The notes under the pieces are model-generated. The model did no database searches. It saw only the letters and a program-made list of their open reading frames with translations, and was not told the origin of the DNA. A stretch of 45,201 bases of DNA from sequence record NC_073088. One strand, written 5' to 3'. Position 1 is the stretch's first letter; each line of letters begins with the position of its first letter. This document shows positions 7,851-44,976 of this stretch, in pieces. Both the position numbers and the translations under genes were made by a program. This DNA is from Escherichia phage PC2.

Positions 7851-8426
7851 ATGTACGGCGAATATGAAATAACCGGTAAACAATTCCACCTGGCGGCAAT
7901 GATTGCAAGCATCGAGTTTGAACAGTGGCGCTTAAAGTCTGACGCGTGCAAGCAAAGCAGACTCGTCGGTGTGCTGGGCGAAATGTTTGCGGGCATGTAC
8001 CTCGAAGGGCAGGCGGGCGGTCGTAGCTGTATCCCACAAGGCTTGCTTATGCGTACCGGCCTGTTTAGCGCTAACACTATCGACCGCGGCGATATTATCA
8101 TGGTTGGCAAGCGCAAGGTTAAGTCCGGTCCTGATTTCCGCGAGCATACGATCGATGCCGTATGGACATACGAGGTTAAAGCCACCAGCGGCATCCGTCG
8201 CGGACTGGTAGAGGCCCGTTGCGCTCGCGAGTATCTGACCCGTCGCGTTGCCGGTGTTATCCTGGTGGGCGTAGATTTCGGACAACATAGCGCGCACGGT
8301 GTGATTGAGGATATAGCAGAGCCATACGTGATCGTGAACGACTGGCCTTTAGTGGAAGTTGACGGTAAGGAATACTACGAAAGCCCGCTGGTGCGGCGCA
8401 AAATGGATTGGGAAAACTCAAACTAA
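7851..8426 (+). CDS. Hypothetical protein (possible PD-(D/E)xK-like nuclease)
   Basis: 191 aa; RBS GAGGG; weak D...E.K pattern (GDIIMVGKRK...WTYEVKAT); followed by a bidirectional terminator. Confidence 0.45.
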   Translation: MYGEYEITGKQFHLAAMIASIEFEQWRLKSDACKQSRLVGVLGEMFAGMYLEGQAGGRSCIPQGLLMRTGLFSANTIDRGDIIMVGKRKVKSGPDFREHTIDAVWTYEVKATSGIRRGLVEARCAREYLTRRVAGVILVGVDFGQHSAHGVIEDIAEPYVIVNDWPLVEVDGKEYYESPLVRRKMDWENSN

Positions 8427-8457
8427 AAAAAAAAGGGGCCATAATGGCCCCTTCTCG
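8425..8457. terminator. Bidirectional intrinsic terminator between the convergent plus arm and the tail fibre gene
   Basis: GGGGCC-ATAAT-GGCCCC flanked by A10 on plus (T10 on minus). Confidence 0.8.
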
Positions 8458-11187: not shown

Positions 11188-12153
11188 ATGGGCGCTGGAA
11201 TACTTATCGACTATAACGACGGCAGGCCGGTAATGGAGATAACCGCGGGACTCCGCGCTCCGTCATACTGCACCAGCTTTAACCAGCGGGCACAGTCCAA
11301 CAAGACGCTAACCATTAACACCCCGCTTACGGAGGGGTCACAGGTCGTCGTCGCGCTCACTCGCCCGGTAGAGGTGATTGAAGTGTTCGACCAGACCCTG
11401 GTAATACCTGATCCGTTTTACGTTACGTCGGTTACTCGCAACGGTAATAGTGGTATCACCCTGCGCGGGGATGATGCGTATGGCGCGTACTCAGGTTTAC
11501 CACAATGGGCGGGCGTAATAATGGAAGTGCTGCCGGTTGGGTCGCGCAACGCGGGCTTGCTGGTGGCGAACTCGACTGACTTCACGGCAATATCCAACGT
11601 GGCAAAGCTGATGACCTGCCGATACGCGAAGCGTGTGCGCGTCAACGGGAGTATGACCTTGCCAGTTAGCGGTGTCCCGTTCGCCCGCTGGGATGACGGC
11701 AATGTATCAGTAGGCTTCGATGGCGGCAGTATTATCGTCCGCAACGCGTCCTATGGTGGTATCGACGATGTGGCGGCTTCGGTGGACATGGACCTTGTAA
11801 TATTCAACAACACGCCACCCACTCCGGGGGCGGGTATCACCATGACGAACAACCAGAATCAGGTCACGTTCTCGACCGTGAACAAGCCGTTCGTATATGA
11901 CCGCACTATTAACCTCGGAACGGGCGACCAGAATATTGGAAACAGCCTGATCCAGCTTTCATACACCGGCGCGCTGATTCAGAACAACGGAGGCTATAAC
12001 CACGTCCGCATGAACGGTATTCGCATGGCGGGTAATAATGTGCGTGTTGCCAAAAACCGCGTCATCGGCAACTACTCGCGGCAGCAATTCCAGATGCCAG
12101 GTAAAAATATTGCAGTACCAACACCGCTACTCGTCATCCCGAATATGTATTGA
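11188..12153 (+). CDS. Beta-rich, Asn/Gly/Thr-rich protein of unknown function (candidate receptor-binding or exclusion-associated protein)
   Basis: 321 aa; start ATG after GGGAG RBS, 2 nt after the lipoprotein stop; fibre-like composition; followed by a GGGGCC hairpin. Confidence 0.5.
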   Translation: MGAGILIDYNDGRPVMEITAGLRAPSYCTSFNQRAQSNKTLTINTPLTEGSQVVVALTRPVEVIEVFDQTLVIPDPFYVTSVTRNGNSGITLRGDDAYGAYSGLPQWAGVIMEVLPVGSRNAGLLVANSTDFTAISNVAKLMTCRYAKRVRVNGSMTLPVSGVPFARWDDGNVSVGFDGGSIIVRNASYGGIDDVAASVDMDLVIFNNTPPTPGAGITMTNNQNQVTFSTVNKPFVYDRTINLGTGDQNIGNSLIQLSYTGALIQNNGGYNHVRMNGIRMAGNNVRVAKNRVIGNYSRQQFQMPGKNIAVPTPLLVIPNMY

Positions 12154-17763: not shown

Positions 17764-18416
17764 CTTACGAATCCAATAGCAGTCTTAAGGGTGGCGGATA
17801 CGGTTGCCGTGAGGTGTCCGTTGTCCGTGTACGACAAGCTCGAACGCTCGACCACGAATAAACCTGTTTCGCCATCCGGCGCGGTGACGACAAACGGCTT
17901 GACGAAGTGCCCGCGAAGGAAGTTGTAAACCAGTTTAGGGTTGCACCACTTGTCAGTAGTCAGTCCTATGAATTGCACGGGGAACTGTTTAGTTTCGGCG
18001 TTCGGGCCGTCCGCGATGTTCTGCCCGTAGCCATTACCGAATTGCAATTCCTCGGACCGGAAAGCTAACTGCACGTCGCCACCGCCCTGCAATTGCATGT
18101 GCCAGTAATAGGGCCATTCGTTTGATCGCGGGTCGTGTGCTTCGATTAGCTCATATGCCGCACCGGATTTCGTTGGCCCAGCCCAGTTATCTTTCAGGGT
18201 AATGACCGTGTTAGAGTTGAATGCCGCAATTTTGCCGGTGTAGTCGTTGCCGTCGATGCGGGCGAATACGAGTACCTTCCCGATCTCGCTAAGGAACGCC
18301 GTTCCCGCGCCAGTGACGGTCTTACTTCCTTTCGTTAGTGTGATTGTACCTTGTGACATAAAAAGCCCCCACGTTGTAGTGAGGGCCATTTTATCATCGT
18401 TTGTAAAGTACACCAC
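17760..18416 (-). CDS. Minor tail protein, lambda M-like
   Basis: Position directly after the tape-measure gene; overlaps it by 23 nt. Confidence 0.7.
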   Translation of the reverse strand: MVYFTNDDKMALTTTWGLFMSQGTITLTKGSKTVTGAGTAFLSEIGKVLVFARIDGNDYTGKIAAFNSNTVITLKDNWAGPTKSGAAYELIEAHDPRSNEWPYYWHMQLQGGGDVQLAFRSEELQFGNGYGQNIADGPNAETKQFPVQFIGLTTDKWCNPKLVYNFLRGHFVKPFVVTAPDGETGLFVVERSSLSYTDNGHLTATVSATLKTAIGFVR

Positions 18417-21036
18417 CCGGTTTCGTCGCCTTCACGATCTCGGCCTTCACCGCCTCGGTGATTTGCTTGCCGAACGCCTGCGCGGTACGTGGGTCCGTCC
18501 CGCCAACACTGGTATCCGTCTTACCGGTCCCCGTGTAAACGTTAGTCGTCACGACCATACCACCGCCTGCGCCAGACGCGGCAACGCCCAGTTTCCCGTC
18601 CGGCCCGCGCTTCAGTGGCATGATGGCCTCGGGTCCAGCCTCACCCATCAACCCAGCGCCCTTAGCGAACGCCTGGACGCCATAACTGAAAAAGGTGGGC
18701 TGGCTTACCACCTGACCCGAATATGCCGCGAGATTGCCCCCTGCGAACGCTCCGCCGTCTGCATTCTTAGTGAGGCCCGAGAAGATAGCGCCGAACAATC
18801 CGTTTTTGCCGCCGTCACCACCGAAAGAGCTAACGATCGACTTGAACGCCTGCGAGGTAGCCAGCTTGATTAACTCGCTCAGGATGGATTTGACCATATC
18901 CTTCGCGTTAATCTTGCCCGTCTCGAAAAACTCGTTCATCGTGTCTTGCATAGCGCTGAATGTAAATTTCGTGAGCGACGCCATCTGCGTATATCCGTTA
19001 CCCATTTCATCCACGCTATCCTTAAGCCCGCGACTGAATCCATCCCATAGCGAGGCGTTAGCCCCGGTCTGCGCCTCCTGCACTTCCCGCAGCTTAGACA
19101 CCGCCTTGTCAATATCGGTATCGTTAGCGCCCACACGCTTCAGGCGGTCGATTAGCTGCAATTCTTCACGCAGGTTTGCCGCTTCTCGAGTGGAAAGCGC
19201 ATAGCCCGCGGCGGTGGCTTTTAGTTCGGCGTTCTGGTTCTTAACGAAGGCATCGATCTGCGCGTGCGCCTTAATCTGCTTCTCTTTCGCGTCCAGCAAT
19301 TTGGCTTCTTCGACGATCTGCTCGCGCACTTCCTTCACGCGTCCGAATTCGACCATCTGCTGCTTTTCTGCTGCCGTTAGCGCTCTTTCTTTGCTCGCAG
19401 CGATTAACTGCTCATTGTCGGCGATCAGCTTGTTTAAGGCCGCTTGAGCGCGTTGCGTGCGGGTCTGCGTAGACGCGTTGGCTTCGATCTGCTTGCCGGA
19501 TTCTCGAAGCTGGGCCAGTTCGCTCCGTGCGACTTCCAGCATTTTCATACCGGCATCCACGCGAACAGCCGCGGCCTTCTTCGGGGCGGGGTCTTTGTAA
19601 CGCTCGTTTACCTGCTTCACCGCCTCGGCAAGCTCTTTCTCATCAATAACGCCGCGCTTATTCAGCAAATTGAGGCGGGCGATCTCGTCTGCACGCTTCT
19701 TCGCGTTGGTTGCGTACTCCTTCTCGAACGCAGCGCGGTCGCGGGCGGTGCGGTTAGCCTCCTCGTTCGCCTTTGCGGATTCGTCTGCGGCGCGGGCGTT
19801 GTCTCGCTCCGCGCGGTTACGCAGGGTGAGCGACGCCACCACTTTTTCCTGGGCGACCAGTTCGCTGTAAAGCATGTTAATACGTGCTTTCTGCGCTTCA
19901 GTCATTACCCCACCGGCAGCGTTTACCGCTTTCATCTCGGCATAGTAAGCCGTGGTCATGCGCTGTAGTGATTCGCGTGCTTTCATCTCGGACTCATTGG
20001 AGGACTGCGCGCGGCCCACATCCAGGATGGCATCCCACATTGATTTGGCTGCCGATGTGACGACGTTCATCGACCGCTCAAGCGTACCCATGTTCGCCTT
20101 GATCTCATTGGTCATGCTGGTGAACGACGCAGCGGCTGTTTTGTTAGCCAACGCAACTGCGTCTGTCTCACGACCCGCATCAACGAGCGACTGTACCTGC
20201 TGGATCTGCGCTTCGTTTACGACGTGATACTTATCCGCCAGCGCACGCAGTCCGCCTACGGGGTCGGTTGACAGCTTCGCCACCGCCGCTACCACATCCT
20301 CGATCGGCTGGCTGGACACCTTCGCAAAGTCATTAACTACCTTAGCCAATGCGCCGAAGTCACCACCCGCTTTCACACCCGCCGCCGCCAGCGCCTGGAT
20401 TGTGTCACGCGTCTTGCGAAATGACCCGCCCATGCGCTCGGCGTTCTCGGACAGCACCAGGATCTGGTTAGCGGTGAGGCCGGAGATATTACCAGACAGC
20501 GCCAGCGTCTTATTAAGCGCCGCCACCTGGTTCTCTGCGCGGGTCGTAATTGCCACGCCCACGCCTAACGTCGCCGTTAATGCCGAAAGGCCGATCCCTA
20601 CTGGGCCGAGGAAGCCCGCAACATAACGCAGCGTGTTACCAAGTCCGCCAAATGCGCCGGTTAGCTGTGGTAGCTGCTGAAGCATGACGCGGTGCACCGG
20701 CATACCCATCTCAAGCGTAACCGCAATATCCTGCAACTGGAATGCGGCGTTCCTCGATGCGAATCCCAGGTTTTTGGTAGACATGCCTAATCGGCTGGCG
20801 AGTCGCTCCTGTTTCGTCATACCATCGGCGGCACGCTGCGATTCAGTCGCTAACTTTTCCATTCCGCCAGCGGCGTCGCCAGTAACCTTTTTCGACTTGC
20901 CGAGGGTGTCGTTTAATTTCTTTACTTTCTGTTCTGTGTTCTCGGATTTCTGCGCAAATGTGTCCAGCACAGTATTAGCCGTTTTAATTTGCGCGACGTC
21001 CGCCTTGAGCGTGATGCCCGCTGCCTGATCTGCCAT
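18394..21036 (-). CDS. Tail tape measure protein
   Basis: 880 aa, largely alpha-helical Ala/Lys/Glu-rich with hydrophobic segments; RBS AAGGGGGA. Confidence 0.9.
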   Translation of the reverse strand: MADQAAGITLKADVAQIKTANTVLDTFAQKSENTEQKVKKLNDTLGKSKKVTGDAAGGMEKLATESQRAADGMTKQERLASRLGMSTKNLGFASRNAAFQLQDIAVTLEMGMPVHRVMLQQLPQLTGAFGGLGNTLRYVAGFLGPVGIGLSALTATLGVGVAITTRAENQVAALNKTLALSGNISGLTANQILVLSENAERMGGSFRKTRDTIQALAAAGVKAGGDFGALAKVVNDFAKVSSQPIEDVVAAVAKLSTDPVGGLRALADKYHVVNEAQIQQVQSLVDAGRETDAVALANKTAAASFTSMTNEIKANMGTLERSMNVVTSAAKSMWDAILDVGRAQSSNESEMKARESLQRMTTAYYAEMKAVNAAGGVMTEAQKARINMLYSELVAQEKVVASLTLRNRAERDNARAADESAKANEEANRTARDRAAFEKEYATNAKKRADEIARLNLLNKRGVIDEKELAEAVKQVNERYKDPAPKKAAAVRVDAGMKMLEVARSELAQLRESGKQIEANASTQTRTQRAQAALNKLIADNEQLIAASKERALTAAEKQQMVEFGRVKEVREQIVEEAKLLDAKEKQIKAHAQIDAFVKNQNAELKATAAGYALSTREAANLREELQLIDRLKRVGANDTDIDKAVSKLREVQEAQTGANASLWDGFSRGLKDSVDEMGNGYTQMASLTKFTFSAMQDTMNEFFETGKINAKDMVKSILSELIKLATSQAFKSIVSSFGGDGGKNGLFGAIFSGLTKNADGGAFAGGNLAAYSGQVVSQPTFFSYGVQAFAKGAGLMGEAGPEAIMPLKRGPDGKLGVAASGAGGGMVVTTNVYTGTGKTDTSVGGTDPRTAQAFGKQITEAVKAEIVKATKPGGVLYKR

Positions 21037-21104
21037 TATGCAGTCCCCCTTTTTATGCAGTTGCCGTCGGTCATTGTATCAGCGAATTTAAAACAAACCT
21101 TATT

Positions 21105-21270
21105 CAGTCTCAGACGAGGGGGGCCAATGACCCCCGTCTAGTCTGAAAGACTGGGCTTTGTCCCGCCTGTCCCGATCGGCTAAAACCAGCGGCAGCACTG
21201 GCGGGGACAGGGGTGCTGTCCCGCTTTGTCCCGACCCATTCTGTCCCGCTTTTTGTCCCGCTTACTTTAT
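21105..21270. repeat. Copy A of the 166-bp GTCCCGC-repeat / hairpin element
   Basis: Aligns block-for-block with 38166-38331; contains the perfect palindrome GCGGGACAG-GGGTG-CTGTCCCGC and six GTCCCG units. Confidence 0.85.
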
Positions 21271-21300
21271 GCACGAAAACTGAATAGATATTCACATTTT

Positions 21301-21430
21301 GGGGGCGGGACAGATCGGGACAGCACCCCTGTCCGCTTTTAATTTATGCAATGCTGGTGGGTAAATATGCAGTTTTTAAAGGTGCGGGATAGAACGGGAC
21401 AAAACGGGACGTCCCGCCTGTCCCGCTCCG
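21301..21430. repeat. Second cluster of GGGACA / GTCCCGC units adjoining copy A
   Basis: GGGCGGGACAGATCGGGACAGCACCCCTGTCCGC and GCGGGATAGAACGGGACAAAACGGGACGTCCCGCCTGTCCCGC; in inverted orientation to the copy A units, across an AT-rich spacer (about 21271-21300). Confidence 0.7.
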
Positions 21431-21754
21431 TTATGCGGGGTTCTGCCGCGCCATTTCATCCAGCGCAACGCGTTCCATTAGCTTGATATCTTTAAACGCA
21501 CGTTGCGCGTTTTCGATGCCGTGCATCTTAAATAGCCATTCCAGTACGCCATAGTCGATGCCGTATGCCCCGCCAAATCCGGTACGCCATTGCGTGGAGC
21601 AATCTGTGAAGACTGCGACTACCTTCGCGTTGTCGGGCCACAGCGCAACGGGTGGACACACGTCTTCAGGTGTCGCACCCCATAAACTCGCGGCTAAATC
21701 TTCGGAGGGTGGCGGCGGGCCATAAAAGCGTCGCGCCGCCTCAATTAGTTTTTT
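21431..21754 (-). CDS. T-like extension of the tail assembly chaperone, reached only by -1 frameshift from G (G-T fusion)
   Basis: The -1 frame stays open from the heptamer (21754-21748) to the TAA at 21433-21431 with no in-frame start near its 5' end; fused product about 229 aa. Confidence 0.75.
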   Translation of the reverse strand, partial: KKLIEAARRFYGPPPPSEDLAASLWGATPEDVCPPVALWPDNAKVVAVFTDCSTQWRTGFGGAYGIDYGVLEWLFKMHGIENAQRAFKDIKLMERVALDEMARQNPA

Positions 21755-22107
21755 TCACGCAATCCCATCAGTTCGAGATAGTACGAAGTGTGGAACACGC
21801 CGAACGCGCGCGGATAGTTGACCACCAGGCGGCGGACGTTCTCCGCGTTAAATTCGTCCGGCAGATTCCAGCCTTCTGCGACGTGCATGATGGCCTCGAC
21901 CATAACGTTAAAGCCGTCCGGGTCATTGTCGTCATATTCCGACAACTTGCGCTCAGTATCCTGCATGGTCTGCGAAAATTCGTCTATAGGGCGGTGGCGC
22001 ACGGTGAACGTCATTTTGCCTGGTTCGTTTTCGCCGGGGCGCGGGATTTCAATCGGCAGCTTAAAAGTCGGCTTAGGGTCAAGTGTAAAGAGTGGTGCTT
22101 TAGCCAT
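21745..22107 (-). CDS. Tail assembly chaperone, lambda G-like
   Basis: 120 aa from ATG 22107 (RBS GGAGA 7 nt upstream; the ORF track opens at TTG 22122); ends ...MGLREKN* at the slippery heptamer. Confidence 0.8.
   Translation of the reverse strand: MAKAPLFTLDPKPTFKLPIEIPRPGENEPGKMTFTVRHRPIDEFSQTMQDTERKLSEYDDNDPDGFNVMVEAIMHVAEGWNLPDEFNAENVRRLVVNYPRAFGVFHTSYYLELMGLREKN
21748..21754 (-). other. Programmed -1 ribosomal frameshift slippery heptamer A AAA AAC
   Basis: Minus strand reads CGT GAA AAA AAC TAA in the G frame; A_AAA_AAC lies 3 nt before the G stop; -1 frame continues KKLIEAARRFYGPPPP... Confidence 0.8.
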
Positions 22108-22123
22108 TGTAGTATTCTCCAAT

Positions 22124-22146
22124 AAAAAAGGGGCCGTACTGGCCCC
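22124..22146 (-). terminator. Strong intrinsic terminator after the major tail protein gene
   Basis: Minus strand GGGGCC-AGTAC-GGCCCC followed by TTTTTT, just upstream of the G chaperone RBS. Confidence 0.8.
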
Positions 22147-24939: not shown

Positions 24940-24954
24940 TTCATTCACTCCTAT

Positions 24955-24978
24955 AAAAAAGGCGGGCATAAGCCCGCC
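24955..24978 (-). terminator. Strong intrinsic terminator after the major capsid gene
   Basis: Minus strand GGCGGGC-TTAT-GCCCGCC followed by TTTTTT. Confidence 0.8.
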
Positions 24979-27051: not shown

Positions 27052-27366
27052 ATGACTAACATGACCGTAGCAACTCCAGTAGACGCCGCAATGGCCCGTT
27101 TCAATAAAGCTACCGTAGCGAATACCTTTACCTTTCACGCAATGCGTAACGCGGAAGCGCTGAATCTGTGCCAGAGCATGAATGCTTCTGAAGCGGCAAA
27201 AGCGGCGATCAACTCCGCGATATTCGATAATCCGGCTTGCGGCCTGGTTCCGGCATCTTTCATAAACGCCCTGGTCGAAGCCTTTAACGATTTCATGTGC
27301 GTCGATGCCGTTGAAGCTGTATGTGCCCGCTTAACTTCCACCGGTGGCAACATCAAATTCAACTAA
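27052..27366 (+). CDS. Hypothetical protein, moron gene 1
   Basis: 104 aa; RBS GAAGGAAG; own promoter 26987-27016; plus strand inside the minus structural arm. Confidence 0.5.
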   Translation: MTNMTVATPVDAAMARFNKATVANTFTFHAMRNAEALNLCQSMNASEAAKAAINSAIFDNPACGLVPASFINALVEAFNDFMCVDAVEAVCARLTSTGGNIKFN

Positions 27367-27420
27367 ACCAATCGGGGGCGAAAGCCCCAATAATGAGGAC
27401 ACAAAAATGAGGACACAAAA

Positions 27421-28185
27421 ATGAGACTGACAAAAGACATTAAAAATCAGATTCTGGCTAACATCCTGCGCGACCACGAAATCGCAACCGAAGCCAAACA
27501 AATCATGATGGACTCACGCGACATGGCGTACGCAATCACGCTGGACTGTATGCCGGACGGCATTCGCACATTCGCCGCGCTACGCGAGCATATCCTGTTA
27601 ATCCGCGATGACCAGTCGCAGATGTACGGCGTCAGCATATACACCAACAAGGCGACGTATAGTTATAACTCCGACCGCCCGAAGGGTATCGGCAGCGTCT
27701 ATGACGCCACCTTTGAAATCAACGCAGGCGGCAATGTTCGCACCTTGTCATTGAGCGGCGACGGTCGCCAACACCGCATACATCGCGGGTACTGGGAAGA
27801 GAAATATATGAATAAGCTCGCGCCTGATCTCGGCGATATCGTTCCGGGGTTCGAGACAGTTATGCTCGCGTCAGTGTGCGAAGTGGACGAGGACGGGAAA
27901 GCGCTGCCGATATATCTCCCACGCGGTCGCGTAGACTACCCAGCGGATCATGATTTCTGTAAGCGCCTGGACCGTAACGACCAGGCCCGCCGCGAGTTGC
28001 GCGCGAAGTATGACGCGTTCAAACTCACCGTTACCGGTGTACTTGACCTGCACAATACTGACAAGAAGCTGATTAAGGCATGGCCTGAAGTCGAGCAATT
28101 CATCCCGTACCCGGACAAGCAAAAATCCACGGCGGTGGCGCTGGATGTGAAAACACTCAACGAGATTTGCGGCATTCCGCGCTAA
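27421..28185 (+). CDS. Hypothetical protein, moron gene 2
   Basis: 254 aa; no motif recognised; followed by a hairpin at 28191-28211. Confidence 0.55.
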   Translation: MRLTKDIKNQILANILRDHEIATEAKQIMMDSRDMAYAITLDCMPDGIRTFAALREHILLIRDDQSQMYGVSIYTNKATYSYNSDRPKGIGSVYDATFEINAGGNVRTLSLSGDGRQHRIHRGYWEEKYMNKLAPDLGDIVPGFETVMLASVCEVDEDGKALPIYLPRGRVDYPADHDFCKRLDRNDQARRELRAKYDAFKLTVTGVLDLHNTDKKLIKAWPEVEQFIPYPDKQKSTAVALDVKTLNEICGIPR

Positions 28186-28190
28186 CGAAA

Positions 28191-28211
28191 AAGGGGCCAT
28201 TACGTCCCCTT
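28191..28211. terminator. Hairpin between the moron cassette and the spanin genes
   Basis: AAGGGG-N9-CCCCTT, followed on plus by GATTATTTG. Confidence 0.45.
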
Positions 28212-28430: not shown

Positions 28431-28641
28431 ATTTAACAACCTCTTTTGTGATAGTCCGGTATTCCACGTCGCGGGCTTGTTCTGCCTGCACGGAGCGCTC
28501 GATTACTTTAGTTTGCTGCCGTTGGGCTTGGGCTTGCGCTTCTTGCGCCGCCTCCGCCACTACGCCAGCGCGATAGGAGTCACCTAGCCAGAATCCTACC
28601 GCCAGACCTATAACCAGTCCAATCGCTGCATATTTAATCAC
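28312..28641 (-). CDS. i-spanin (Rz-like)
   Basis: 109 aa from GTG 28641 (RBS GGGGG); N-terminal transmembrane segment AAIGLVIGLAVGFWLG then Ala/Gln/Glu coiled-coil; overlaps the o-spanin ORF. Confidence 0.55.
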   Translation of the reverse strand: MIKYAAIGLVIGLAVGFWLGDSYRAGVVAEAAQEAQAQAQRQQTKVIERSVQAEQARDVEYRTITKEVVKYVTRPNRPDCSFDAERVRIKQRAVDAANGIGTATAVQVR

Positions 28642-29737
28642 GCCATAACCCCCGGTTTTTAAGCTGTGCAATAGTCATCAGTTCGCCAGAATCGGTGAAC
28701 ATCTTCGGCACTTTCACGCCGCGCATAATCTGGTCGGCGCGTTGCACTCCGTATAATTCTTCCAGGATATGGCGCGGCTGGCGCTGCACCCATGAGAAGA
28801 AATCAGTCTGCGCGTCGACCTGCTCACTCAGCAATCGACCCGCGTCAGCCTTCAGTGCCGGACGCTTACCACTGGGCCAATCTTCCATGCCTTTAACCTT
28901 CCACGTCTCCGTCGATCGGCAACAATAATGCAACTTGCCCGGACCAGCGCCATATTGTGACCCAGCCACCACTTTCCCGCCGCGCTTTCCTTTGGTGTCG
29001 GGAGTAACACCAACCGGATAAAACAGGCGATCGCGTAGCTGGCACATGGGAGAAGTATGCGTGTCCAATGTAGATAACCATTGGCGACCTTCGAGAATAT
29101 CGTCATTTGCTTTTACCATTAGTTCGCGGGCTGTAGCCGCATAGTGGTTTACTGCGGATTTAACAACGCTCGATATAGCTTGCGCACTACGACCACCTAG
29201 CGCGCGCCTCACGTCCGCGATAATTTCCATCGTTGGCTTGCCCTGGATGAATCCCGCTCGCACCTGATTACCGATCTGCGTCCTGGTCCACTCCGAGAGT
29301 GAGTCGGGCCATTGCATCATCGTATTACCCTGGAACGGGTTTTTCATCGCAGTCGCTGCGATCTGCGCACCTGTAACTACGCCCACCACCTCGACCGCAG
29401 GTACGGCTACCACCGGCTGGATCGCTGCCGTTAATGTGTCAGCGAGATAATCGGCCTCCGTGTCGGCGAACTCCTGAAGGCTTTCAGCCAGCGCCTTAAA
29501 CTCGGTGCGCAGTTCTGTTTTAACGGTCTTGTCGAGTTGCGTTAGCAGAGTGGTAAGTGCCTTGTTGTTCATGGACTTTTTGCCATCAAGTAACTCGGTC
29601 AGCTTACCCAGTAACGTGGGCCGGAACTTCTCCCACATAGCCAGCACCTTTCGCGCCTGGTCATTGCTCAGGCGCTGGGTGAAGATGTGACGGCGAATCA
29701 TTCGATCCGCCATATATTGATTAATTGTCTTTGCCAT
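28634..29737 (-). CDS. Head morphogenesis protein (SPP1 gp7 / Mu F-like)
   Basis: 367 aa directly downstream of portal; overlaps portal by 17 nt. Confidence 0.65.
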   Translation of the reverse strand: MAKTINQYMADRMIRRHIFTQRLSNDQARKVLAMWEKFRPTLLGKLTELLDGKKSMNNKALTTLLTQLDKTVKTELRTEFKALAESLQEFADTEADYLADTLTAAIQPVVAVPAVEVVGVVTGAQIAATAMKNPFQGNTMMQWPDSLSEWTRTQIGNQVRAGFIQGKPTMEIIADVRRALGGRSAQAISSVVKSAVNHYAATARELMVKANDDILEGRQWLSTLDTHTSPMCQLRDRLFYPVGVTPDTKGKRGGKVVAGSQYGAGPGKLHYCCRSTETWKVKGMEDWPSGKRPALKADAGRLLSEQVDAQTDFFSWVQRQPRHILEELYGVQRADQIMRGVKVPKMFTDSGELMTIAQLKNRGLWRD

Positions 29738-37949: not shown

Positions 37950-37977
37950 TGTTCAGTCCTCTTGTTGGTGTGCAACC

Positions 37978-38006
37978 AATCTAGCAGGATGCTGGCATGA
38001 ATGCAA
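37978..38006 (-). promoter_or_regulatory. Sigma70-type promoter (TTGCAT-N17-TAGATT) with an overlapping palindromic operator
   Basis: Minus-strand hexamers read directly; palindrome GTTGGTGTGCAACCAAT at 37964-37980 overlaps the -10; two TGCAACCAA copies at 37971-37979 and 38002-38010. Confidence 0.55.
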
Positions 38007-38165
38007 CCAATATTAATCACGCGTATGAAAAAGTTGATCGCTATCTGCTGTGACTGCAAACTGCATTTTTCACACCCCATTCTGCAACTCGCATTGGTTG
38101 CCTAGTTCAGCGACGACCGCGATTTACAATGTGCTGCCGTGTATTATGCAATCCCGGATTTTATG

Positions 38166-38331
38166 CAGTCTCAGACGAGGGGGTCAGTTGGCCCCCGTCT
38201 AGTCTGAAAGACTGGGAGTTGTCCCGCCTGTCCCGCTCCTCGCCAGGCCGCGTCATCCGGGGCGGGACAGGGGTGCTGTCCCGCTTTGTCCCGCCCCTGG
38301 TCTGTCCCGCTTTTTGTCCCGCTTACTTTAT
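38166..38331. repeat. Copy B of a 166-bp GTCCCGC-repeat / hairpin element
   Basis: Aligns with 21105-21270: identical blocks CAGTCTCAGACGAGGGGG, CCCCCGTCTAGTCTGAAAGACTGGG, TTGTCCCGCCTGTCCCG, GCGGGACAGGGGTGCTGTCCCGCTTTGTCCCG and CTGTCCCGCTTTTTGTCCCGCTTACTTTAT, separated by divergent spacers. Confidence 0.85.
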
Positions 38332-38372
38332 TCAGTTTTATTGCATAACTATTCACTATATTTACACTACAC

Positions 38373-38420
38373 GGCAACCAATGCGACCAGATAAAAACGC
38401 TCAAAATGGCAACCAATGCG
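38373..38420. repeat. Direct repeat of GGCAACCAATGCG (two copies, 22-bp spacer)
   Basis: Copies at 38373-38385 and 38408-38420, just downstream of the primase-helicase stop. Confidence 0.6.
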
Positions 38421-38428
38421 CGCAAAAA

Positions 38429-40693
38429 TTAATCTTTCAGGTCATCATCGGTCGCCGAAAGCGTTATGGGAATATCCGATTTGATGACCAAATTCGACGA
38501 CCCATAGATGGCCCCGGTGTGCGGATCTGTATAAAAACCAATCACGCCGCGCTCGACCATATCGTCGATTGCCTTCGTCGAAGTGCCTCCCTTAGCGAGT
38601 CCAGCCTGGCGGACAATTGCCGATTTACTGAATCCAGTGTGGTTAGGGTTATCTTCCATCAGTTTTTCCAGTGCCGCATAGAGCACTTTCTCTTTTTCGT
38701 TGCGCGGACCGGCGGTGTTCTCCTCCTTAGCTGCGGCTTTTCCCTCCGCCTTCGCCTGTTCTATAGCGAACGGTGCCAGGGCAACCGGTACGAGGTAGAG
38801 AGTCTCGTCGCGAGGTGTGGAGGCAATCGGCTTGACGTCCCAACCGGCAACCACATCCCCGAAGTCTGGCCCGGTGCTGGTGGACTGGTGCGACGCGAAC
38901 GCTTCTGACTTGCGGAGATCCACCTTCACCTTGCACTTGAGCAGGACGAAGCCACGCGGCGCTTGCTTGATACCGTTACGTGACTTTTCGTGGTACAGGT
39001 TGAGTTGTCCCGGCTGGTTGTCGTCCGGCTGTTCCAGGAAGAACGCAGAATCGACAGCACCATGCAGCGCGCCGGACCCGCGGGGGGTTCTGCTGCCGTT
39101 TGCACCTTTCGCGGGGTGGTGGATGACACCCGCACTGCCACCTGTATTTTCCGCAATGGCCTTCAGCGCTTTGACCACTTCACCCATATCGCTGGCGTTG
39201 TTCTCGTCGAACGGTTTAGCATCAGCGGACCGCAACGCAACAGTCTGGTTGAGTGAGTCGAACGCCACCAGGCCAACCGGTTCGCCGTTAGCGGTGCGGT
39301 TGATAAAGCTGATAACTTCGCGCAAGCCGGATTTGCTGGTGATATCCCAGCCGCGTGACTGCAGATCGATAATGTGCAGCTTGTCCAGGTCGTGCTCGTA
39401 TTTAATCTGCAATGCTTCTTTACGCTGGTTGGAGGCTTCACCACCTTCCGCATCGAAATAGAAGCAATGGGACTGGACGACCTTCGCACCGCCAAACGGA
39501 ATACCGGCGGCAACCGCGCCCATCTGGCCCAGCACGTAGAAAGACTTACCAATATTCGACTCACCCGCCATGTACCAGGTCGATTTGAAGTTAATCAGAC
39601 CTTCGATGATCGGGTCGTGCTTACTGAATAGTGCGACCGGCTCGTTATCCAGATCCGCATCGGTGCACACGCCGTATTCTTCGCCGTCGCCAACCGCATC
39701 AACAATATGTTCATATAAGGATTCGACTTCCTCGTCGTCCAGCCCTGGGAGGATGGCGGCAATTTGCTTACGTGACATGTTGTGCGGCTCGACGTTCAGG
39801 TGGTCCGGTATCCCGATAAGACGTAGCGCCAGGTGCTGGTGTCTATTTAGCTCCGAGCAACACTCGTTTCCGGTGTGCATACACTTGAAACGGATCTCGC
39901 CATCCTTGACCATGATAGCCGTCGACCCTTCGCCGCTGTGCAGATGTTCGTTCGGGCACGGCACTTCATAACCGCGACCAGAAGATAACTCCTCGAATCC
40001 TGCCTGGAAGCACCAGTCCAGAATACCGTCCGCCACTGCGTCGTCGCCCTGGGTAAGCTCGCGGCGTACTTCCTCTTTCTCCACCCCCAGCTTGTCCGCC
40101 AGGCGGAGCAGACGCCGCACATTAGCGCGCTTGCCGTAGTGGCACTTAATAACAGACTGCTGGTGTGGCAAGTACATAAGACGGTTTGTGTCTTTCGTGC
40201 AATCGTCGAAGTCCACATCCGACAGGCCCAGTTGGTCTAACAGCGCGTACTGCACGCGGCCCAGGTCTTCCGCCGGTACTGGTTTATCTGTGAGCACAAG
40301 GAAACGGGCGCAACGCGTGCCGCCTTTCAGCGGGTGGCGGTCGCCGGTGGTTGTGTGGAATACGTGCTCAAGCCCCGCGCCGATGAAAGCCTTGCGGCAG
40401 CGGCGTAGGGTGCGGGTGTCGGTACGGTCAATATCGAAGAACAGGATCGAGCGGTCCACCGCACTTGTCTTGCGGCGTAAGCCGTCACTGGTATACGCTA
40501 CGATGCCATCGGCCTTACGCTTGCGGCGCGCATACTCGGCTTTATCTTCCGTCTTGTTGATATGCACCGAGGAGATTTCTTTCGCATCATTGATAAATTC
40601 GAAAAATTCATCGGTGGTCATCTGGAAGTTTTCCGCCCTGGCTTTTTCGCCTTTTTTAGCGGGTCTTGTTACAGCGAATTTAATTAAGCTCAT
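38429..40693 (-). CDS. Primase-polymerase (AEP-like) fused to a P-loop helicase
   Basis: 754 aa; N-terminal DxD motif (ILFFDIDRTD), central Cys-rich zinc-binding segment (CPNEHLH...CMHTGNECC), C-terminal Walker A (MAGESNIGKSF). Confidence 0.8.
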   Translation of the reverse strand: MSLIKFAVTRPAKKGEKARAENFQMTTDEFFEFINDAKEISSVHINKTEDKAEYARRKRKADGIVAYTSDGLRRKTSAVDRSILFFDIDRTDTRTLRRCRKAFIGAGLEHVFHTTTGDRHPLKGGTRCARFLVLTDKPVPAEDLGRVQYALLDQLGLSDVDFDDCTKDTNRLMYLPHQQSVIKCHYGKRANVRRLLRLADKLGVEKEEVRRELTQGDDAVADGILDWCFQAGFEELSSGRGYEVPCPNEHLHSGEGSTAIMVKDGEIRFKCMHTGNECCSELNRHQHLALRLIGIPDHLNVEPHNMSRKQIAAILPGLDDEEVESLYEHIVDAVGDGEEYGVCTDADLDNEPVALFSKHDPIIEGLINFKSTWYMAGESNIGKSFYVLGQMGAVAAGIPFGGAKVVQSHCFYFDAEGGEASNQRKEALQIKYEHDLDKLHIIDLQSRGWDITSKSGLREVISFINRTANGEPVGLVAFDSLNQTVALRSADAKPFDENNASDMGEVVKALKAIAENTGGSAGVIHHPAKGANGSRTPRGSGALHGAVDSAFFLEQPDDNQPGQLNLYHEKSRNGIKQAPRGFVLLKCKVKVDLRKSEAFASHQSTSTGPDFGDVVAGWDVKPIASTPRDETLYLVPVALAPFAIEQAKAEGKAAAKEENTAGPRNEKEKVLYAALEKLMEDNPNHTGFSKSAIVRQAGLAKGGTSTKAIDDMVERGVIGFYTDPHTGAIYGSSNLVIKSDIPITLSATDDDLKD

Positions 40694-40703
40694 TGCCGTG
40701 GCC

Positions 40704-41033
40704 TTACTTAGAAGTTTTATTATTGCGTACCCAGGAGCGCACTGTGCTCTGATTAATTCCGGTCAACTCGGCAATCATTGCCCAGGATTTTCCCTCGGCG
40801 CGCAAACGGATAACCTGTTTTTTGTATTCTTCCATTTCTTCATTGTGCTTTTGCAGCTTGCTGGCTGCCGTACCGTTGAGCAATTCCAGCCTGGCGCGTA
40901 ATTCTTTTTCTACACTGCGCAGGCGCTCGACCTCAAATAGCACCGCCCCCACGGCATCGGTATAAGCCCATGACCGGCTTGTTTCACTGCTAACAGTCTT
41001 CGTTAACATTTCGATTGCGTCGTTTACATTCAT
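40704..41033 (-). CDS. Transcriptional regulator with C-terminal helix-turn-helix
   Basis: 109 aa; coiled-coil N-terminus; C-terminal HTH (GKSWAMIAELTGINQSTVRSWV); RBS GAGGG; first gene after promoter 41065-41093. Confidence 0.55.
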   Translation of the reverse strand: MNVNDAIEMLTKTVSSETSRSWAYTDAVGAVLFEVERLRSVEKELRARLELLNGTAASKLQKHNEEMEEYKKQVIRLRAEGKSWAMIAELTGINQSTVRSWVRNNKTSK

Positions 41034-41046
41034 TGCTCAGCCCTCA

Positions 41047-41063
41047 GTTGGTTAATGACCAAC
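41047..41063. promoter_or_regulatory. Palindromic operator candidate GTTGGT-TAATG-ACCAAC at the start of the regulator transcript
   Basis: Perfect 6-bp arms read directly; related palindromes at 37964-37980 and 27014-27030 overlap two other promoters. Confidence 0.5.
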
Positions 41064-41064
41064 G

Positions 41065-41093
41065 AAACTACACCTAAAACCACAAGGTGTCAA
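41065..41093 (-). promoter_or_regulatory. Sigma70-type promoter (TTGACA-N17-TAGTTT) for the regulator and primase-helicase
   Basis: Consensus -35 read on the minus strand; divergent from the plus promoter at 41213-41241. Confidence 0.55.
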
Positions 41094-41212
41094 ATCCTTT
41101 GGATATTGAAACGGGCGCGCACGCGTGTAATAATAATAATTCCCGTCTCATTGTCTCTTATTGGTTAGCGCCGTCGCATTTTGCTTCGGCGCTTTTTTTT
41201 TAAAATTAGTTG

Positions 41213-41241
41213 TTGACTCCCTTCTGCAACCAATCTAATAT
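41213..41241 (+). promoter_or_regulatory. Sigma70-type promoter (TTGACT-N17-TAATAT) with upstream T/A-rich tract
   Basis: Hexamers read directly; T9 tract and AAAATTAG at 41194-41210; drives the plus arm. Confidence 0.6.
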
Positions 41242-41247
41242 TCACCT

Positions 41248-41436
41248 CGTCGACAGGATGCAGGACGCAAACTGGAGAGGGGCAACGCAGGGGCCGGATC
41301 GAAGTGTCAGGATTCCCAACCGTGATTATATAACCCGGTCCACTACCCGAAGGGAGAACGCGCAACCGGGCACTATGTTAAGGCCACCGACGAAGTTAAT
41401 GGTCGACACCTAAACTTAACCAATCGGAGATATACC
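41248..41436 (+). other. Long (about 190 nt) GC-rich 5' leader before the first plus-arm gene
   Basis: No RBS-supported ORF; two GTCGAC palindromes near its ends (41251-41256 and 41409-41414); could be a structured regulatory RNA. Confidence 0.35.
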
Positions 41437-41949
41437 ATGTTTGAACAAATCGTAAACCTGATTACTCGCGGCGTAGTAGCACTGGAAACCATCGCTAAGC
41501 ATTATGAAACCGTCGGCGCTGCCGTTGGTAAACAGGAAGACAAGAAGCCGTCTAAGGCTAAAAAAGAAGTTGTCGAAGATGACGACGCCGAAGACGAAGC
41601 ACCGGCGAAAACCAAAAAAGCACCGGCGAAAGGTAAGGCCAAAAAAGAAGTCGTAGAGGATGACGACGATGAAGAAGCCGAAGACGAAAAACCGGCGAAG
41701 GGTAAAAAAGCACCGGCGAAAGGCAAAGGTAAGAAAGATGCCGACCCGCTGGCAGAGATGCGCGACGAGATCAAACAGTATGCCGCGATTATCGCTGGCG
41801 GTGATGATGACGATGCGAACGACGAATTTGACGACCTGCTGGAATCGTTCGAGATCAAATCAATCGCCAAGCTGGAAGATGACGACGTGGAAGATTTCCA
41901 CAAAGATCTGAAAGAAATCGTCGAAACCTATTTCGAACTGGAAGATTAA
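41437..41949 (+). CDS. Acidic protein with alternating Lys-rich and Asp/Glu-rich repeats
   Basis: 170 aa; repeats KKEVVEDDD(A/D)E...APAKGK; first gene after a strong promoter; followed by a terminator. Confidence 0.55.
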   Translation: MFEQIVNLITRGVVALETIAKHYETVGAAVGKQEDKKPSKAKKEVVEDDDAEDEAPAKTKKAPAKGKAKKEVVEDDDDEEAEDEKPAKGKKAPAKGKGKKDADPLAEMRDEIKQYAAIIAGGDDDDANDEFDDLLESFEIKSIAKLEDDDVEDFHKDLKEIVETYFELED

Positions 41950-42249: not shown

Positions 42250-42438
42250 ATGGCTATATTCTTCGTTTTATTTCGTTGCCGTATTACCGGCGACGAGCAA
42301 CCGGAAATTGTTATGAATCAAAACTGGAATTGCTGCTGGATGCAAGCCCGAGGACTGGCGGCTACCATGAACAATGCCGCTAAGCGGGCCAATGTTGAAC
42401 ATGATTATTACATTGCTCAGTTTTCAAGGGTGGAATAA
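42250..42438 (+). CDS. Hypothetical small protein
   Basis: 62-aa ORF starting right after the upstream stop; TAATG overlap with the nuclease gene. Confidence 0.3.
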   Translation: MAIFFVLFRCRITGDEQPEIVMNQNWNCCWMQARGLAATMNNAAKRANVEHDYYIAQFSRVE

Positions 42439-43868
42439 TGGCGATTAAACCAAAACGTAAAACGCAATCCGGTAGCAATACGGAACACTCATTACTCGGA
42501 CCGTCCGGTGCTAAAAAATGGATGGGTTGCCCTGCCGCCCTGGTGGTGGAAAAAGATATCCCGAACGAATCCGGGCAAGCCGCGATTAACGGTACGAGTA
42601 TGCACACCGTATCTGAGGTGGTGCTAAACCGCATTATCGCCGGTGAGAAGCTGATAACCGCGAAGACGTATAAAGGGTGCTACGTCGAGAACGAAGGCAA
42701 GGGGCCAGTAAAGGCACACCCTAAAGCACCGAAAGGCGGCGTACTGGTCAACGACGACATGGTGAAACAGTGCGACGCGTACATCGACCACTGGCGACCG
42801 CTCCTCGAAGTGGCGGAGTTTGTCCAGCTTGAGATGCGCGCCGATCTGACCCGCGTCCTTCACTCAGGCTACGAGATCGACGGCAACAGGATTAAAACGT
42901 TCGGTACTGCCGATATGGTCATGGTCATGAAGAAGACTGACGGCACGTACATGCTTATTGTTGGCGACCTGAAGACCGGGCGGCATAAGGTCGAGGCGAA
43001 AGAAAACAAACAGCTTATGTTGTACGCGATCGGACTGCTGCGCAAGCTGCACACTATGTACGACATTACGACCGTTCGCCTGGTTATCTTCCAGCCGTAT
43101 TGCGGCGGGGCGTCGGAGTGGGATATTTCGGTAGAAGCGCTGGAGATATTCGCGAAGTTTGCATCCAAGCGCGCTATTGCCGCACTGGAGGCGTATTCCC
43201 GCGGCAAGAAGGGACTCACCCGCGCGGACTTCCGGCCCAGCGTCGATGCGTGCCAGTGGTGCCGATTTGCGGATCAGTGTAGTGCCCGCGCTAAGGCCGC
43301 AATCGACACGATGACCCCACCGACGGCAACCGACGAAGACCTGGGCGACGACGTGAGTATTGCGACAGAGGAAGAATGCGCCAACCATGCCCGCAATATG
43401 GCCCGCGAAGCGCGGAAGGCGGCACGACGAGCGAAGCGTGGTAAGAAAGAAGCAGCCCCCGGTGCTATGAGCGCTGCGGAACTGCGCAAGGCTTATGAAG
43501 GCCTGGACGCAATGCGCCAGCACATCAAGGCTATCGAGTCCGCGGTATTCAAGGCGGTCATGGCTGGCGATGGCGAATCGCTGGGCCTCAAGATGGTTGC
43601 CGGTAAGGAAGGGGTCCGTAAGTGGGCGGACGAGAGCGAAGTGATTGAAATATTCACGAAGGCCCGGATCAAGCGCGATGTGATGTACAAAGAAACATTG
43701 CTCAGTCCTACGGACGCCGAGAAGGTGCTGAAGGACGAGAAGCCGAAAGTGTGGGCTAAATTATGTGATAAAATCACGCGCGCACCGGCTAAACCGGTAT
43801 TAGCACCCATCGACGACCCGCGCCCTGCGTGGTCGGAGGCCACTGACGAGGACTTAAGCAATGAATAA
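42438..43868 (+). CDS. Cas4-like PD-(D/E)xK nuclease (DUF2800-like) with Fe-S cysteine cluster
   Basis: 476 aa; N-terminal Cys (WMGCPA), core GDLKTGRHKVEAKENKQLMLYA (QxxxY), C-terminal CQWCRFADQC. Confidence 0.7.
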   Translation: MAIKPKRKTQSGSNTEHSLLGPSGAKKWMGCPAALVVEKDIPNESGQAAINGTSMHTVSEVVLNRIIAGEKLITAKTYKGCYVENEGKGPVKAHPKAPKGGVLVNDDMVKQCDAYIDHWRPLLEVAEFVQLEMRADLTRVLHSGYEIDGNRIKTFGTADMVMVMKKTDGTYMLIVGDLKTGRHKVEAKENKQLMLYAIGLLRKLHTMYDITTVRLVIFQPYCGGASEWDISVEALEIFAKFASKRAIAALEAYSRGKKGLTRADFRPSVDACQWCRFADQCSARAKAAIDTMTPPTATDEDLGDDVSIATEEECANHARNMAREARKAARRAKRGKKEAAPGAMSAAELRKAYEGLDAMRQHIKAIESAVFKAVMAGDGESLGLKMVAGKEGVRKWADESEVIEIFTKARIKRDVMYKETLLSPTDAEKVLKDEKPKVWAKLCDKITRAPAKPVLAPIDDPRPAWSEATDEDLSNE

Positions 43869-44103: not shown

Positions 44104-44193
44104 CCGCTTAGGCGCAACCAAGTAGATCGGCAACCAAGCCGAACGGGGTGGCTCACAATAACCCCGATACATGTGAAAATGAGGAATTGGAAA

Positions 44194-44976
44194 ATGGCTA
44201 AAGTCAACCTGAAAAATGTGCGCGTATGTTTCCTGAAAATTTGGGAACGTGATACCCCTAAACAGGATGGACAAAAACCGGCATACCGTGCAGTGATTCT
44301 TCTTGATAAAGAAGATCCGCAGGTGGACAAAGTGGAAGCGGCAGCGCGCGCAGTGCTAACCGACAAGCTGAAATCCGAGAAGAACGCCGATAAGTGGATG
44401 GACCGCCACTACGCCCAGGATTCTAAGGAATGCGCTGTTCGTGACGGTGACGAGCGCGATGAAGTGACTGAAGAATTCGAAGGCATGTTGTACATCAACG
44501 CTAAATCGTTCAAACAGCCGAACATCCAAACGTCACTCGGCGAGAAGCAGACCGAACAGGGTCTGACCATCGACGGCGACGAGATTGAAGGCCAGGAGAT
44601 CTACTCCGGTTGTTATTGCAACGTGTCCCTGGATATTTGGGCGTGGAACAACACCAACGGCAAGGGACTCGGTGCTGGACTGCTGGGTTTACGCTTCCGT
44701 GATGACGGTGAAGCCTTCGGCGGTGGCGGATCTTCTTGCTCCGATGAAGACCTGGACAACGACGAAGACGAAGCACCGCGCAAGGCTAAGAAGTCAAAAC
44801 GTCGTGATGACGATGATGAAGATGATAAGCCGCGTAAGTCCAAAAAGTCCAAGCGCCGCGATGACTACGACGATGAGGAAGATGAAAAACCTCGCAAACG
44901 TCGCAAGTCCCGCGATGACGAAGATGAGGACGAAGACGACGAAGACGAAGCACCACGTAAACGTCGCCGCCGTTAA
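44194..44976 (+). CDS. Single-stranded DNA-binding protein-like (gp2.5 / DUF2815-like) with charged repeat tail
   Basis: 260 aa from ATG 44194 (RBS GAGGA); N-terminus MAKVNLKNVRV; C-terminal about 80 aa of alternating D/E-rich and PRKSKKSKRR repeats ending RKRRRR. Confidence 0.55.
   Translation: MAKVNLKNVRVCFLKIWERDTPKQDGQKPAYRAVILLDKEDPQVDKVEAAARAVLTDKLKSEKNADKWMDRHYAQDSKECAVRDGDERDEVTEEFEGMLYINAKSFKQPNIQTSLGEKQTEQGLTIDGDEIEGQEIYSGCYCNVSLDIWAWNNTNGKGLGAGLLGLRFRDDGEAFGGGGSSCSDEDLDNDEDEAPRKAKKSKRRDDDDEDDKPRKSKKSKRRDDYDDEEDEKPRKRRKSRDDEDEDEDDEDEAPRKRRRR

Follow-up and report, generated by a model that had tools for sequence, protein, structure and literature searches.

The window, the whole stretch of 45,201 nucleotides analysed here (Escherichia phage PC2, NC_073088), is a complete Dhillonvirus genome of the HK578/SO-1 group, as seen by comparison with the HK578 and SO-1 maps, and its tail region is 94-96% identical to Escherichia phage B2, SD276, HK578, EP23 and SSL-2009a. 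Two transcription arms diverge from 41034-41436, the minus arm running from the HTH gene gp45 through the helicase-primase gene, a group of small genes and the lysis, terminase, head and tail genes to the tail-tip gene at 12181. Hairpins of a GGGGCC-N4-GGCCCC family with T/A runs (8426-8451, 22121-22146, 24953-24978 and 28184-28209) represent intrinsic terminators; they follow the major tail and major capsid genes, among others, and both arms converge at the one at 8426-8451.

Within the tail genes, 394 bp of non-coding DNA (21037-21430, region A) lie between the tape-measure gene (18394-21036, minus strand, 880 aa, matching Pfam TMP_2 at 1.7e-42 and also Tape_meas_lam_C) and the tail assembly chaperone genes (21431-22122, minus strand, with DUF1799 at 21431-21745 and Phage_TAC_4 at 21745-22122). 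The initial annotation had described about 400 bp of non-coding DNA splitting two genes that are normally adjacent in lambda-type tail operons, and had proposed a comparison with related tail modules. This comparison agreed with it on both counts, as the gap was found in all 157 matching Dhillonvirus records searched, whereas in T1 just 41 bp separate the chaperone and tape-measure genes, and in 30 distant DUF1799-encoding loci from IMG/VR the two are contiguous. The same annotation noted that the predicted small ORFs of the gap and of copy B resemble each other as peptides only where the DNA repeats coincide, and named a conserved gene in the spacer of related phages as the finding that would speak against its reading; the relatives do carry the spacer, but a conserved gene is absent from it. 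The ORFs of the gap (38-107 aa) differ in frame, length and position among 15 Dhillonvirus genomes, none being kept in frame or length, and 1-nt indels occur in the alignment, so that a protein-coding gene at this place was rejected. Phage B2 (MG581355.1) annotates ORF24 and ORF25 as 'hypothetical proteins' within the gap (20426-20518 and 20490-20681); judged by their lack of conservation as ORFs, they are almost certainly not genes, and annotators should be warned against such entries.

Anatomy of region A

In the direction of transcription, region A consists of a hairpin, a stretch with TGCATA(A) motifs, inverted iterons, an AT-rich core, the main iterons, a stem-loop, an extended -10 element and a leader, and the conservation footprint of these parts was derived from an alignment of 15 Dhillonvirus genomes. 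The unit GTCCCG occurs 12 times in 21160-21425, in both orientations, where ~0.09 occurrences are expected (Poisson P ~5e-22), and seven times in 38221-38321 (Poisson P ~1e-14), within the second copy of the element (region B), compared to only 15 occurrences in the remaining 44.8 kb, which amounts to a >100-fold enrichment in the two regions. In region A, six forward units (21160-21260) are followed by four reverse units (at 21306, 21316, 21395 and 21405) and two further forward units (at 21411 and 21420), with a phasing of 9-12 bp in both orientations. In addition, a 33-nt inverted repeat (21205-21237 and 21302-21334, 91% complementary) brackets the AT-rich core, which at 21262-21300 is 74% AT, compared to 45% for the genome. 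Two elements of the initial description, the reversed orientation of the second cluster and the inverted repeats around an AT-rich core, are thereby confirmed, with the two forward units to be added to the former. Across the 15 genomes the GTCCCG units are conserved in A as well as in B, while the spacers between them vary.

Directly after the chaperone stop, an inverted-iteron hairpin (21401-21426, minus strand; GCGGGAC-N9-GTCCCG-TTTT, with AGGCGGGAC as N9) is invariant in the 15 genomes; it folds at -25.9 kcal/mol (z = -4.4) with the U-run as part of the stem, and the HK578 record annotates it as a rho-independent terminator. The hairpin lies in the distal iteron cluster (21385-21426), made up of one CGGGAT, two CGGGAC and two GTCCCG units, which is followed by a second AT-rich stretch with two conserved TGCATA(A) motifs (21335-21384, minus strand, 66% AT) and by the right arm of the 33-nt inverted repeat (21302-21334), an inverted partial copy of the iteron block that pairs with 21205-21237 as well as with 38265-38297 in region B. 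The AT-rich core (21260-21294, minus strand) carries an ARG-box-like pair, Box 1 (TGAATATCTATTCA, 21281-21294) and Box 2 (GCATAAAGTAAGC, 21260-21272), with a start-to-start distance of 21 bp. Next to it, the main iteron array (21157-21261) holds six GTCCCG(C) units at 9-15 bp spacing plus an inverted GGGACA at 21205, and these six GCGGGACA units are constant while their spacers vary. The array is followed by a three-tier stem-loop of 49 nt (21105-21153, outer CAGTC/GACTG, -28.4 kcal/mol, z = -4.9), the stems of which are invariant in the genus and the loop variable, and its complementary strand folds at least as stably. An extended -10 promoter-like element, TGATACAAT (21073-21081, minus strand), is located ~37 nt upstream of the tape-measure ATG, with GCTGATACAAT invariant in the 15 genomes and the next 6-7 nt varying, and the conserved tape-measure leader (21037-21066, minus strand) shows ACTGCATAA on both sides of the Shine-Dalgarno sequence AAGGGGGA.

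Region B and the module in other lineages

Region B (37950-38428), the parent module, lies between the helicase-primase gene and the next gene and corresponds to 'region B' of the Sodalis phage SO-1 record. The helicase-primase gene (38429-40693, minus strand, 754 aa; AAA_25, phrog_3228) encodes a C-terminus with a predicted winged-helix fold (38432-38746), which diverges fast between lineages and for which the match is a generic one. Region B contains an AT-rich core (38322-38372, 75% AT) with Box 1 (GAATAGTTATGCA, 38342-38354, minus strand), an array of seven GTCCCG iterons (38215-38321), a three-tier stem-loop (38166-38214) and a sigma-70 promoter, TTGCAT-17-TAGATT (37978-38006, minus strand), for the genes downstream. 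In most relatives the -10 hexamer of this promoter is TATATT, the -35 hexamer lies inside a ATTGGTTGC motif, and among the 15 genomes the hexamers are conserved while the spacer varies. Direct repeats of 79-97% identity (21100-21295 and 38161-38356) establish that the two repeat copies recognised initially are real, the 200-bp core of the gap being a duplicate of region B. Iterons, core and stem-loop are common to A and B, but the promoter-proximal part differs. Region B has a specific extension with five GCAACCAAT motifs and the promoter TTGCAT-17-TA(G/T)ATT, and region A an extra inverted iteron block. The core of region B represents the least stable 40 bp of the genome, and that of region A ranks 11th, within the top 0.2% of 40-mers.

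The motif GCAACCAAT (ATTGGTTGC) is found throughout the genome in 13 exact copies against ~0.3 expected, mostly intergenic and many of them paired (2546, 5503, 5520, 7181, 10900, 27014, 37417, 37972, 38003, 38093, 38374, 38409 and 41226). It overlaps the -35 and +1 of the promoter 38006-37978(-) and the spacer of TTGACT-17-TAATAT near 41212-41240(+), is dispersed in Edwardsiella phage eiAU as well (as GCAACCA, 31 copies), and is probably the operator of a conserved phage regulator. Moreover, some Dhillonviruses carry one or two extra 55-bp units (ATTGGTTGCC plus the palindrome ATATGGGAATTCCCATAT) just past the helicase-primase stop (L053, L056, L059, L061, L065 and, at 27361-27470 of its record L080, PNS1), which the window lacks. 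A third copy of the module, suggested by '3-4 places' in the BLAST rows, was rejected, as PNS1, HK578 and SO-1 have exactly two stem-loop cores each and the extra places in PNS1 correspond to a terminal assembly overlap.

Homologous helicase-primases (37-47% identity) are encoded by Salmonella phage FSL SP-031 and the uncultured L071, L074 and L076, and in all of these, as in Dhillonvirus, a module of the region B type adjoins the helicase-primase stop; overall, such a module follows the gene in six lineages, i.e., at least five besides Dhillonvirus. The shared order is ARG-like GAATAGTTATGCA boxes 21 bp apart, iterons, three-tier stem-loop, TTATTCA..TATGCA, ACACGGCAGCA and a sigma-70 promoter, and L069 and L073 retain stem-loop, ACACGGCAGCA and promoter. 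The spacing and sequence of the ARG-like pair are conserved in five other lineages, and an equivalent stem-loop with different stem sequences is present in eight (z -1.9 to -4.9). The iterons, in turn, are lineage-specific, namely CGGGACA in Dhillonvirus, GGGGAGA in FSL SP-031, TCCGACA in L071, AGGGATA in L074 and GGGGATG in L076. The complete SP-031 genome has one iteron cluster only, and an IMG/VR search for the L074 iteron pair returned just one cluster in that 47.6-kb contig. In the Guernseyvirinae phages K1G and Ent1, whose enzymes are ~28-33% identical, no iteron array follows the helicase-primase gene, and a reverse Cro-like gene takes its place. Considering the single cluster at the helicase-primase gene in SP-031 and L074, and K1G and Ent1 without an array, comparison among lineages indicates that B is the older element and A a later duplicate.

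Edwardsiella phage eiAU (Eiauvirus), the proteins of which are 38-64% identical (PMC3025963), has both gaps, one of ~1.1 kb between the chaperone and tape-measure genes and one of ~0.9 kb after the helicase-primase gene. The former (L005 42121-43015 and 1-221) has iterons, an AT-rich core and a stem-loop as in Dhillonvirus, together with GCAACCAA arrays, a canonical terminator and a reverse-strand gene that has been inserted there. Both eiAU gaps use the unit CGCCCCG and share a 40-nt block at 90% identity, and the stem-loop of eiAU region A still resembles that of Dhillonvirus, while that of its region B is a different three-tier structure; the iterons of A have thus changed together with those of B in the same genome. 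Within Dhillonvirus, derived iteron changes of the most divergent member are likewise common to its A and B, and region A is closest to the region B of its own genome in 5 of 14 genomes, where ~1 would be expected. Such a common change is what a shared trans-acting binder would predict. The inserted eiAU gene, P858_54 (42365-42718, reverse strand), has its own promoter-like palindrome, TTAAGTTGAATTAACTATAG, which recurs five times in the eiAU genome directly upstream of genes.

The repeats of the gap have been recorded before. The entry of Sodalis phage SO-1 (GQ502199), a member of the same genus, shows regions A and B (features 11214..11597 and 40178..40657) at the same places, between gp16 and gp17 and after the gp48 helicase/primase gene, and carries the note 'direct, inverted and palindromic repeat sequences; sequence similarity with region B; possible ...'. 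The SO-1 entry is a GenBank note only, and a literature search returned no paper discussing these repeats in Dhillonvirus; what was worked out here is the wider family to which the module belongs, its iterons that are specific to each lineage, its stem-loop and its ARG-like boxes. New is therefore the family-wide context together with the likely role. The initial annotation had mentioned neither the SO-1 entry nor the origin of the gap as a duplicate of an older module, and it had overlooked the conserved stem-loop and the conserved promoter-like element at the end of the gap.

Putative role of the two regions

Comparative sequence evidence strongly supports the gap as a protein-binding site, since its units are kept while the spacers vary, are phased at 9-12 bp, recur in a copy beside the helicase-primase gene and change together in A and B. 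Of the two functions offered by the initial annotation, an origin or a large protein-binding site, the latter is thus well supported, whereas the former is plausible. In favour of an origin, copy B adjoins the helicase-primase gene in six lineages and holds the least stable 40 bp of the genome, and the enzyme carries a predicted winged helix. As in iteron origins, short repeats near helical spacing (9, 10, 12 and 15-16 bp; 12 in A, seven in B) are accompanied by an AT-rich, easily melted segment in both regions, and in the case of B they lie next to the putative initiator gene in six lineages. Region A is 17 kb away from the helicase-primase gene and would therefore be a second site. Taken together, we favour, with a probability of about 50%, a reading in which the phage origin is region B, while the gap would be a second site of origin type to which the same factor binds. 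Cumulative GC/AT skew is uninformative about an origin as it follows only gene orientation and transcription, turning at 41248, where the promoters diverge, and at 8438, the site of the convergent terminator, with nothing to be seen at A or B.

In the mechanism that we infer, the parent module combines an AT-rich core with the ARG-like pair, arrays of 7-8 bp iterons (TGTCCCGC/GCGGGACA) on one helical face and the stem-loop of 50 nt. The helicase-primase would be the binder, reading the iterons via its C-terminal winged helix and oligomerising there, while a bending factor, either host ArgR or a phage regulator, would shape the AT-rich core, which then melts, and the extruded stem-loop might signal entry or priming in a strand-specific manner. 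Region A would have been inserted between the chaperone and tape-measure genes in the ancestor that Dhillonvirus and Eiauvirus share, with the hairpin after the chaperone gene as insulation and its own extended -10 promoter restoring transcription of the tape-measure and distal tail genes. There it may act as a secondary origin, where replication would start, or as a distant cis partner of region B, either by looping as in P4 ori-crr or as a fork barrier with bound initiator, as proposed for SPP1 oriR, where replication would pause. Several observations speak against a role in replication: SP-031 and apparently L074 manage with a single module, K1G and Ent1, with their more distant helicase-primases, do without an iteron array, and a sigma-70 promoter follows the module in every lineage, so that a purely transcriptional role would fit its position equally well.

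Such a transcriptional role is the main rival, albeit clearly less probable. Transcripts of the head and tail-tube genes would then end in the gap, and transcription of the tape-measure and distal tail genes would begin anew there from a regulator-controlled promoter, with the GCGGGACA arrays bound but with no part in replication, and region B would do likewise for the operon after the helicase-primase gene. Besides the strong hairpin directly after the chaperone stop, an annotated terminator in HK578, eiAU has a canonical terminator at the equivalent place, which means that transcription of its tape-measure gene has to start from a promoter within the gap. Upstream of the tape-measure gene, TGATACAAT does not vary; region B closes with a conserved sigma-70 promoter in this phage as well as in L071, L074, L076 and L069, and K1G shows TGAATAGT-type boxes in the promoter region by its Cro-like gene. 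However, no lineage-specific regulator was found to go with the lineage-specific iterons, the helicase-primase being the one protein that always adjoins the module, and what A and B share is iterons, core and stem-loop rather than the promoter-proximal part. Furthermore, a two-hexamer promoter and terminator scan of A and B returned nothing above chance, although it missed TGATACAAT; its sole terminator-like site in the gap is on the plus strand, and the U-run of the first hairpin is base-paired. The origin reading and the transcriptional one are compatible, since activation of an origin by a neighbouring promoter is well established, e.g., in lambda, T7 and T4.

An element acting at the RNA level in the polycistronic mRNA, whether for processing by RNase III, for stabilising the message or for sequestering CsrA or another GGA-binding protein as a sponge, appears improbable. 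Its stem-loops are indeed stable (z -2 to -5) and kept across lineages, and the GGGACA repeats contain GGA on the transcribed strand, but the units occur in both orientations, and in six of eight lineages the mRNA strand gives a less stable fold than its complement, with no bias of wobble pairs towards the mRNA strand, which argues against a purely mRNA-level role. Moreover, no Rfam family came near its gathering score in the gap, where just generic miRNA-precursor hairpins appeared, >50 bits below threshold.

Terminase small subunits also bind short repeats flanking bent DNA, and several GenBank assemblies begin or end in or near the gap (UAE_MI-01, EcoIv6a_Kente, PNS1 and BEK2-2). Nevertheless, a site for packaging (pac) or recombination, or a duplicated repeat that is selfish or neutral, is highly improbable, given that packaging in the genus is reported as headful with no fixed ends (PMC9022532), that the module travels with the helicase-primase gene and not with the terminase genes 5 kb away, and that 157 genomes and a second genus each have exactly two copies in fixed places, a pattern that indicates selection and not mobility. 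The ends of the PNS1 record (L080 1-120 and 43826-43945) are an assembly overlap of ~120 bp that stops at the first iteron, which suggests breakpoints of the assembler at a two-copy repeat, not genuine termini. Apart from a chance match with one mismatch at 17782, the window lacks the cos end claimed for phage EE09 (ATCTTAAGGG), which is unrelated to the gap.

Among the candidate binders, the small HTH protein gp45 (40704-41033) was discarded as an obvious conserved one, as no homology to the eiAU protein upstream of the helicase-primase was found. For the core, the boxes invite comparison with ArgR. The canonical operator consists of pairs of 18-bp ARG boxes 3 bp apart, with 21-bp periodicity (PMC6640053). 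Compared with TGAAT-W4-ATTCA, Box 1 of this phage agrees at 13 of 14 positions in region A and at 12 of 14 in its region B counterpart. The whole genome has just three such ARG-box-like cores, the third being TGCATATTTAATCA (12/14; 28627-28640) at the start of the gene 28634-29737 (-). By sequence, an ARG-core box and a second box exactly 21 bp away are present as in E. coli ArgR operators, with the difference that Box 2 is degenerate, a half match. As K1G carries similar TGAATAGT boxes in the promoter region beside its Cro-like gene, a phage regulator is an equally good candidate for the boxes as ArgR.

A bolder extension of the favoured reading is tentative and rather unlikely. Regions A and B may belong to an undescribed type of origin for fused RepA-like helicase-primases, in which lineage-specific 7-mer iterons would be recognised by the enzyme's own C-terminal winged helix, a hexamer of host ArgR would sit as architectural factor on the conserved ARG pair of the unwinding element, and the three-tier DNA stem-loop would direct priming to one strand. 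In Dhillonvirus and Eiauvirus this would come with a two-site system, the copy in the tail operon coupling replication to late expression, and the coupling would take place by a second start, by looping or by a fork pause triggering concatemer synthesis.

Comparison with known replication systems

The closest functional precedent is SPP1, also a virulent siphovirus with two similar repeat and AT-rich regions, one of them in the late genes. Its oriL lies at the replication genes, and its oriR breaks the otherwise conserved order of the morphogenesis genes, with transcription signals on either side; a single origin-binding protein serves both, and oriR was proposed to stall forks (PMC6316719). 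The same layout was found here, with two repeat and AT-rich regions, the second of which splits the late genes between transcription signals. The proteins of SPP1 are unrelated, however, as gp38, the loader gp39 and the DnaB-type gp40 stand against one fused helicase-primase in this phage, and no gp38-family origin-binding protein was among the Pfam/PHROG matches of the replication genes. In addition, oriL is inside gene 38, whereas region B follows the helicase-primase gene, and binding in SPP1 was shown biochemically, whereas here it is proposed from comparison of sequences.

Satellite phage P4 resembles the present case in its multidomain primase-helicase with a C-terminal winged helix and short iterons. 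The P4 iterons are octamers in both orientations, placed in two separated cis regions. They differ from the module described here in that P4 has no conserved stem-loop and that its helicase is of SF3 type, compared to AAA_25/RepA-like in this phage, the primase being different too. The binding of short iterons by the C-terminal winged helix has been described for P4 alpha (PMC4234260), which was not among the sequence or fold matches of the helicase-primase, so that homology of the initiators does not place regions A and B with P4 ori/crr. RSF1010 oriV likewise combines iterons, an AT-rich segment and a conserved hairpin (PMC4234260), and its helicase RepA belongs to the same Pfam family, AAA_25 (weak match to 1g8y). 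Yet RSF1010, with RepA and RepB', has 20-bp iterons, a separate RepC and two hairpins, ssiA and ssiB, on opposite strands, in contrast to units of 7-8 bp and one stem-loop per module in this phage. An essential cis element just 3' of a gene for a primase-helicase with C-terminal winged helix is known from pRN1 and Bordetella phage BIP-1 (PMC4234260), but that of pRN1 is a 100-nt stem-loop without iterons, and the enzyme consists of prim/pol and an SF3 helicase. Because membership by homology fails for each of these systems, the resemblance to SPP1, P4, RSF1010 and pRN1 is best regarded as one of layout, by analogy.

Few coliphages are isolated as often as Dhillonviruses, which also find use in therapy and in defence-system studies. 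If A and B are origins or initiator-binding sites, they would provide a direct handle for marker-frequency, ChIP and plasmid-amplification work, and the lineages, each with an iteron and a winged helix that match, would form a natural series in which to study the evolution of recognition specificity. If ArgR binds the conserved ARG pair, replication or transcription of a virulent phage would be tied to the arginine status of the host.

Two further observations concern the helicase-primase and two other genes. In the helicase-primase, a Cys/His cluster (CPNH...C.H.C...H.H, alignment columns 275-324) is nearly invariant, and the acidic C-terminal tail D-x-D-L-x-D, which may be a contact for polymerase or SSB, is conserved in all lineages. 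The gene 41437-41949 and the gene for an Enc34-type ssDNA-binding protein (44173-44976) contain coding repeats, both tandem and dispersed, with a high content of Asp/Glu and Lys/Ala/Pro (41565-41743 and 44742-44960).
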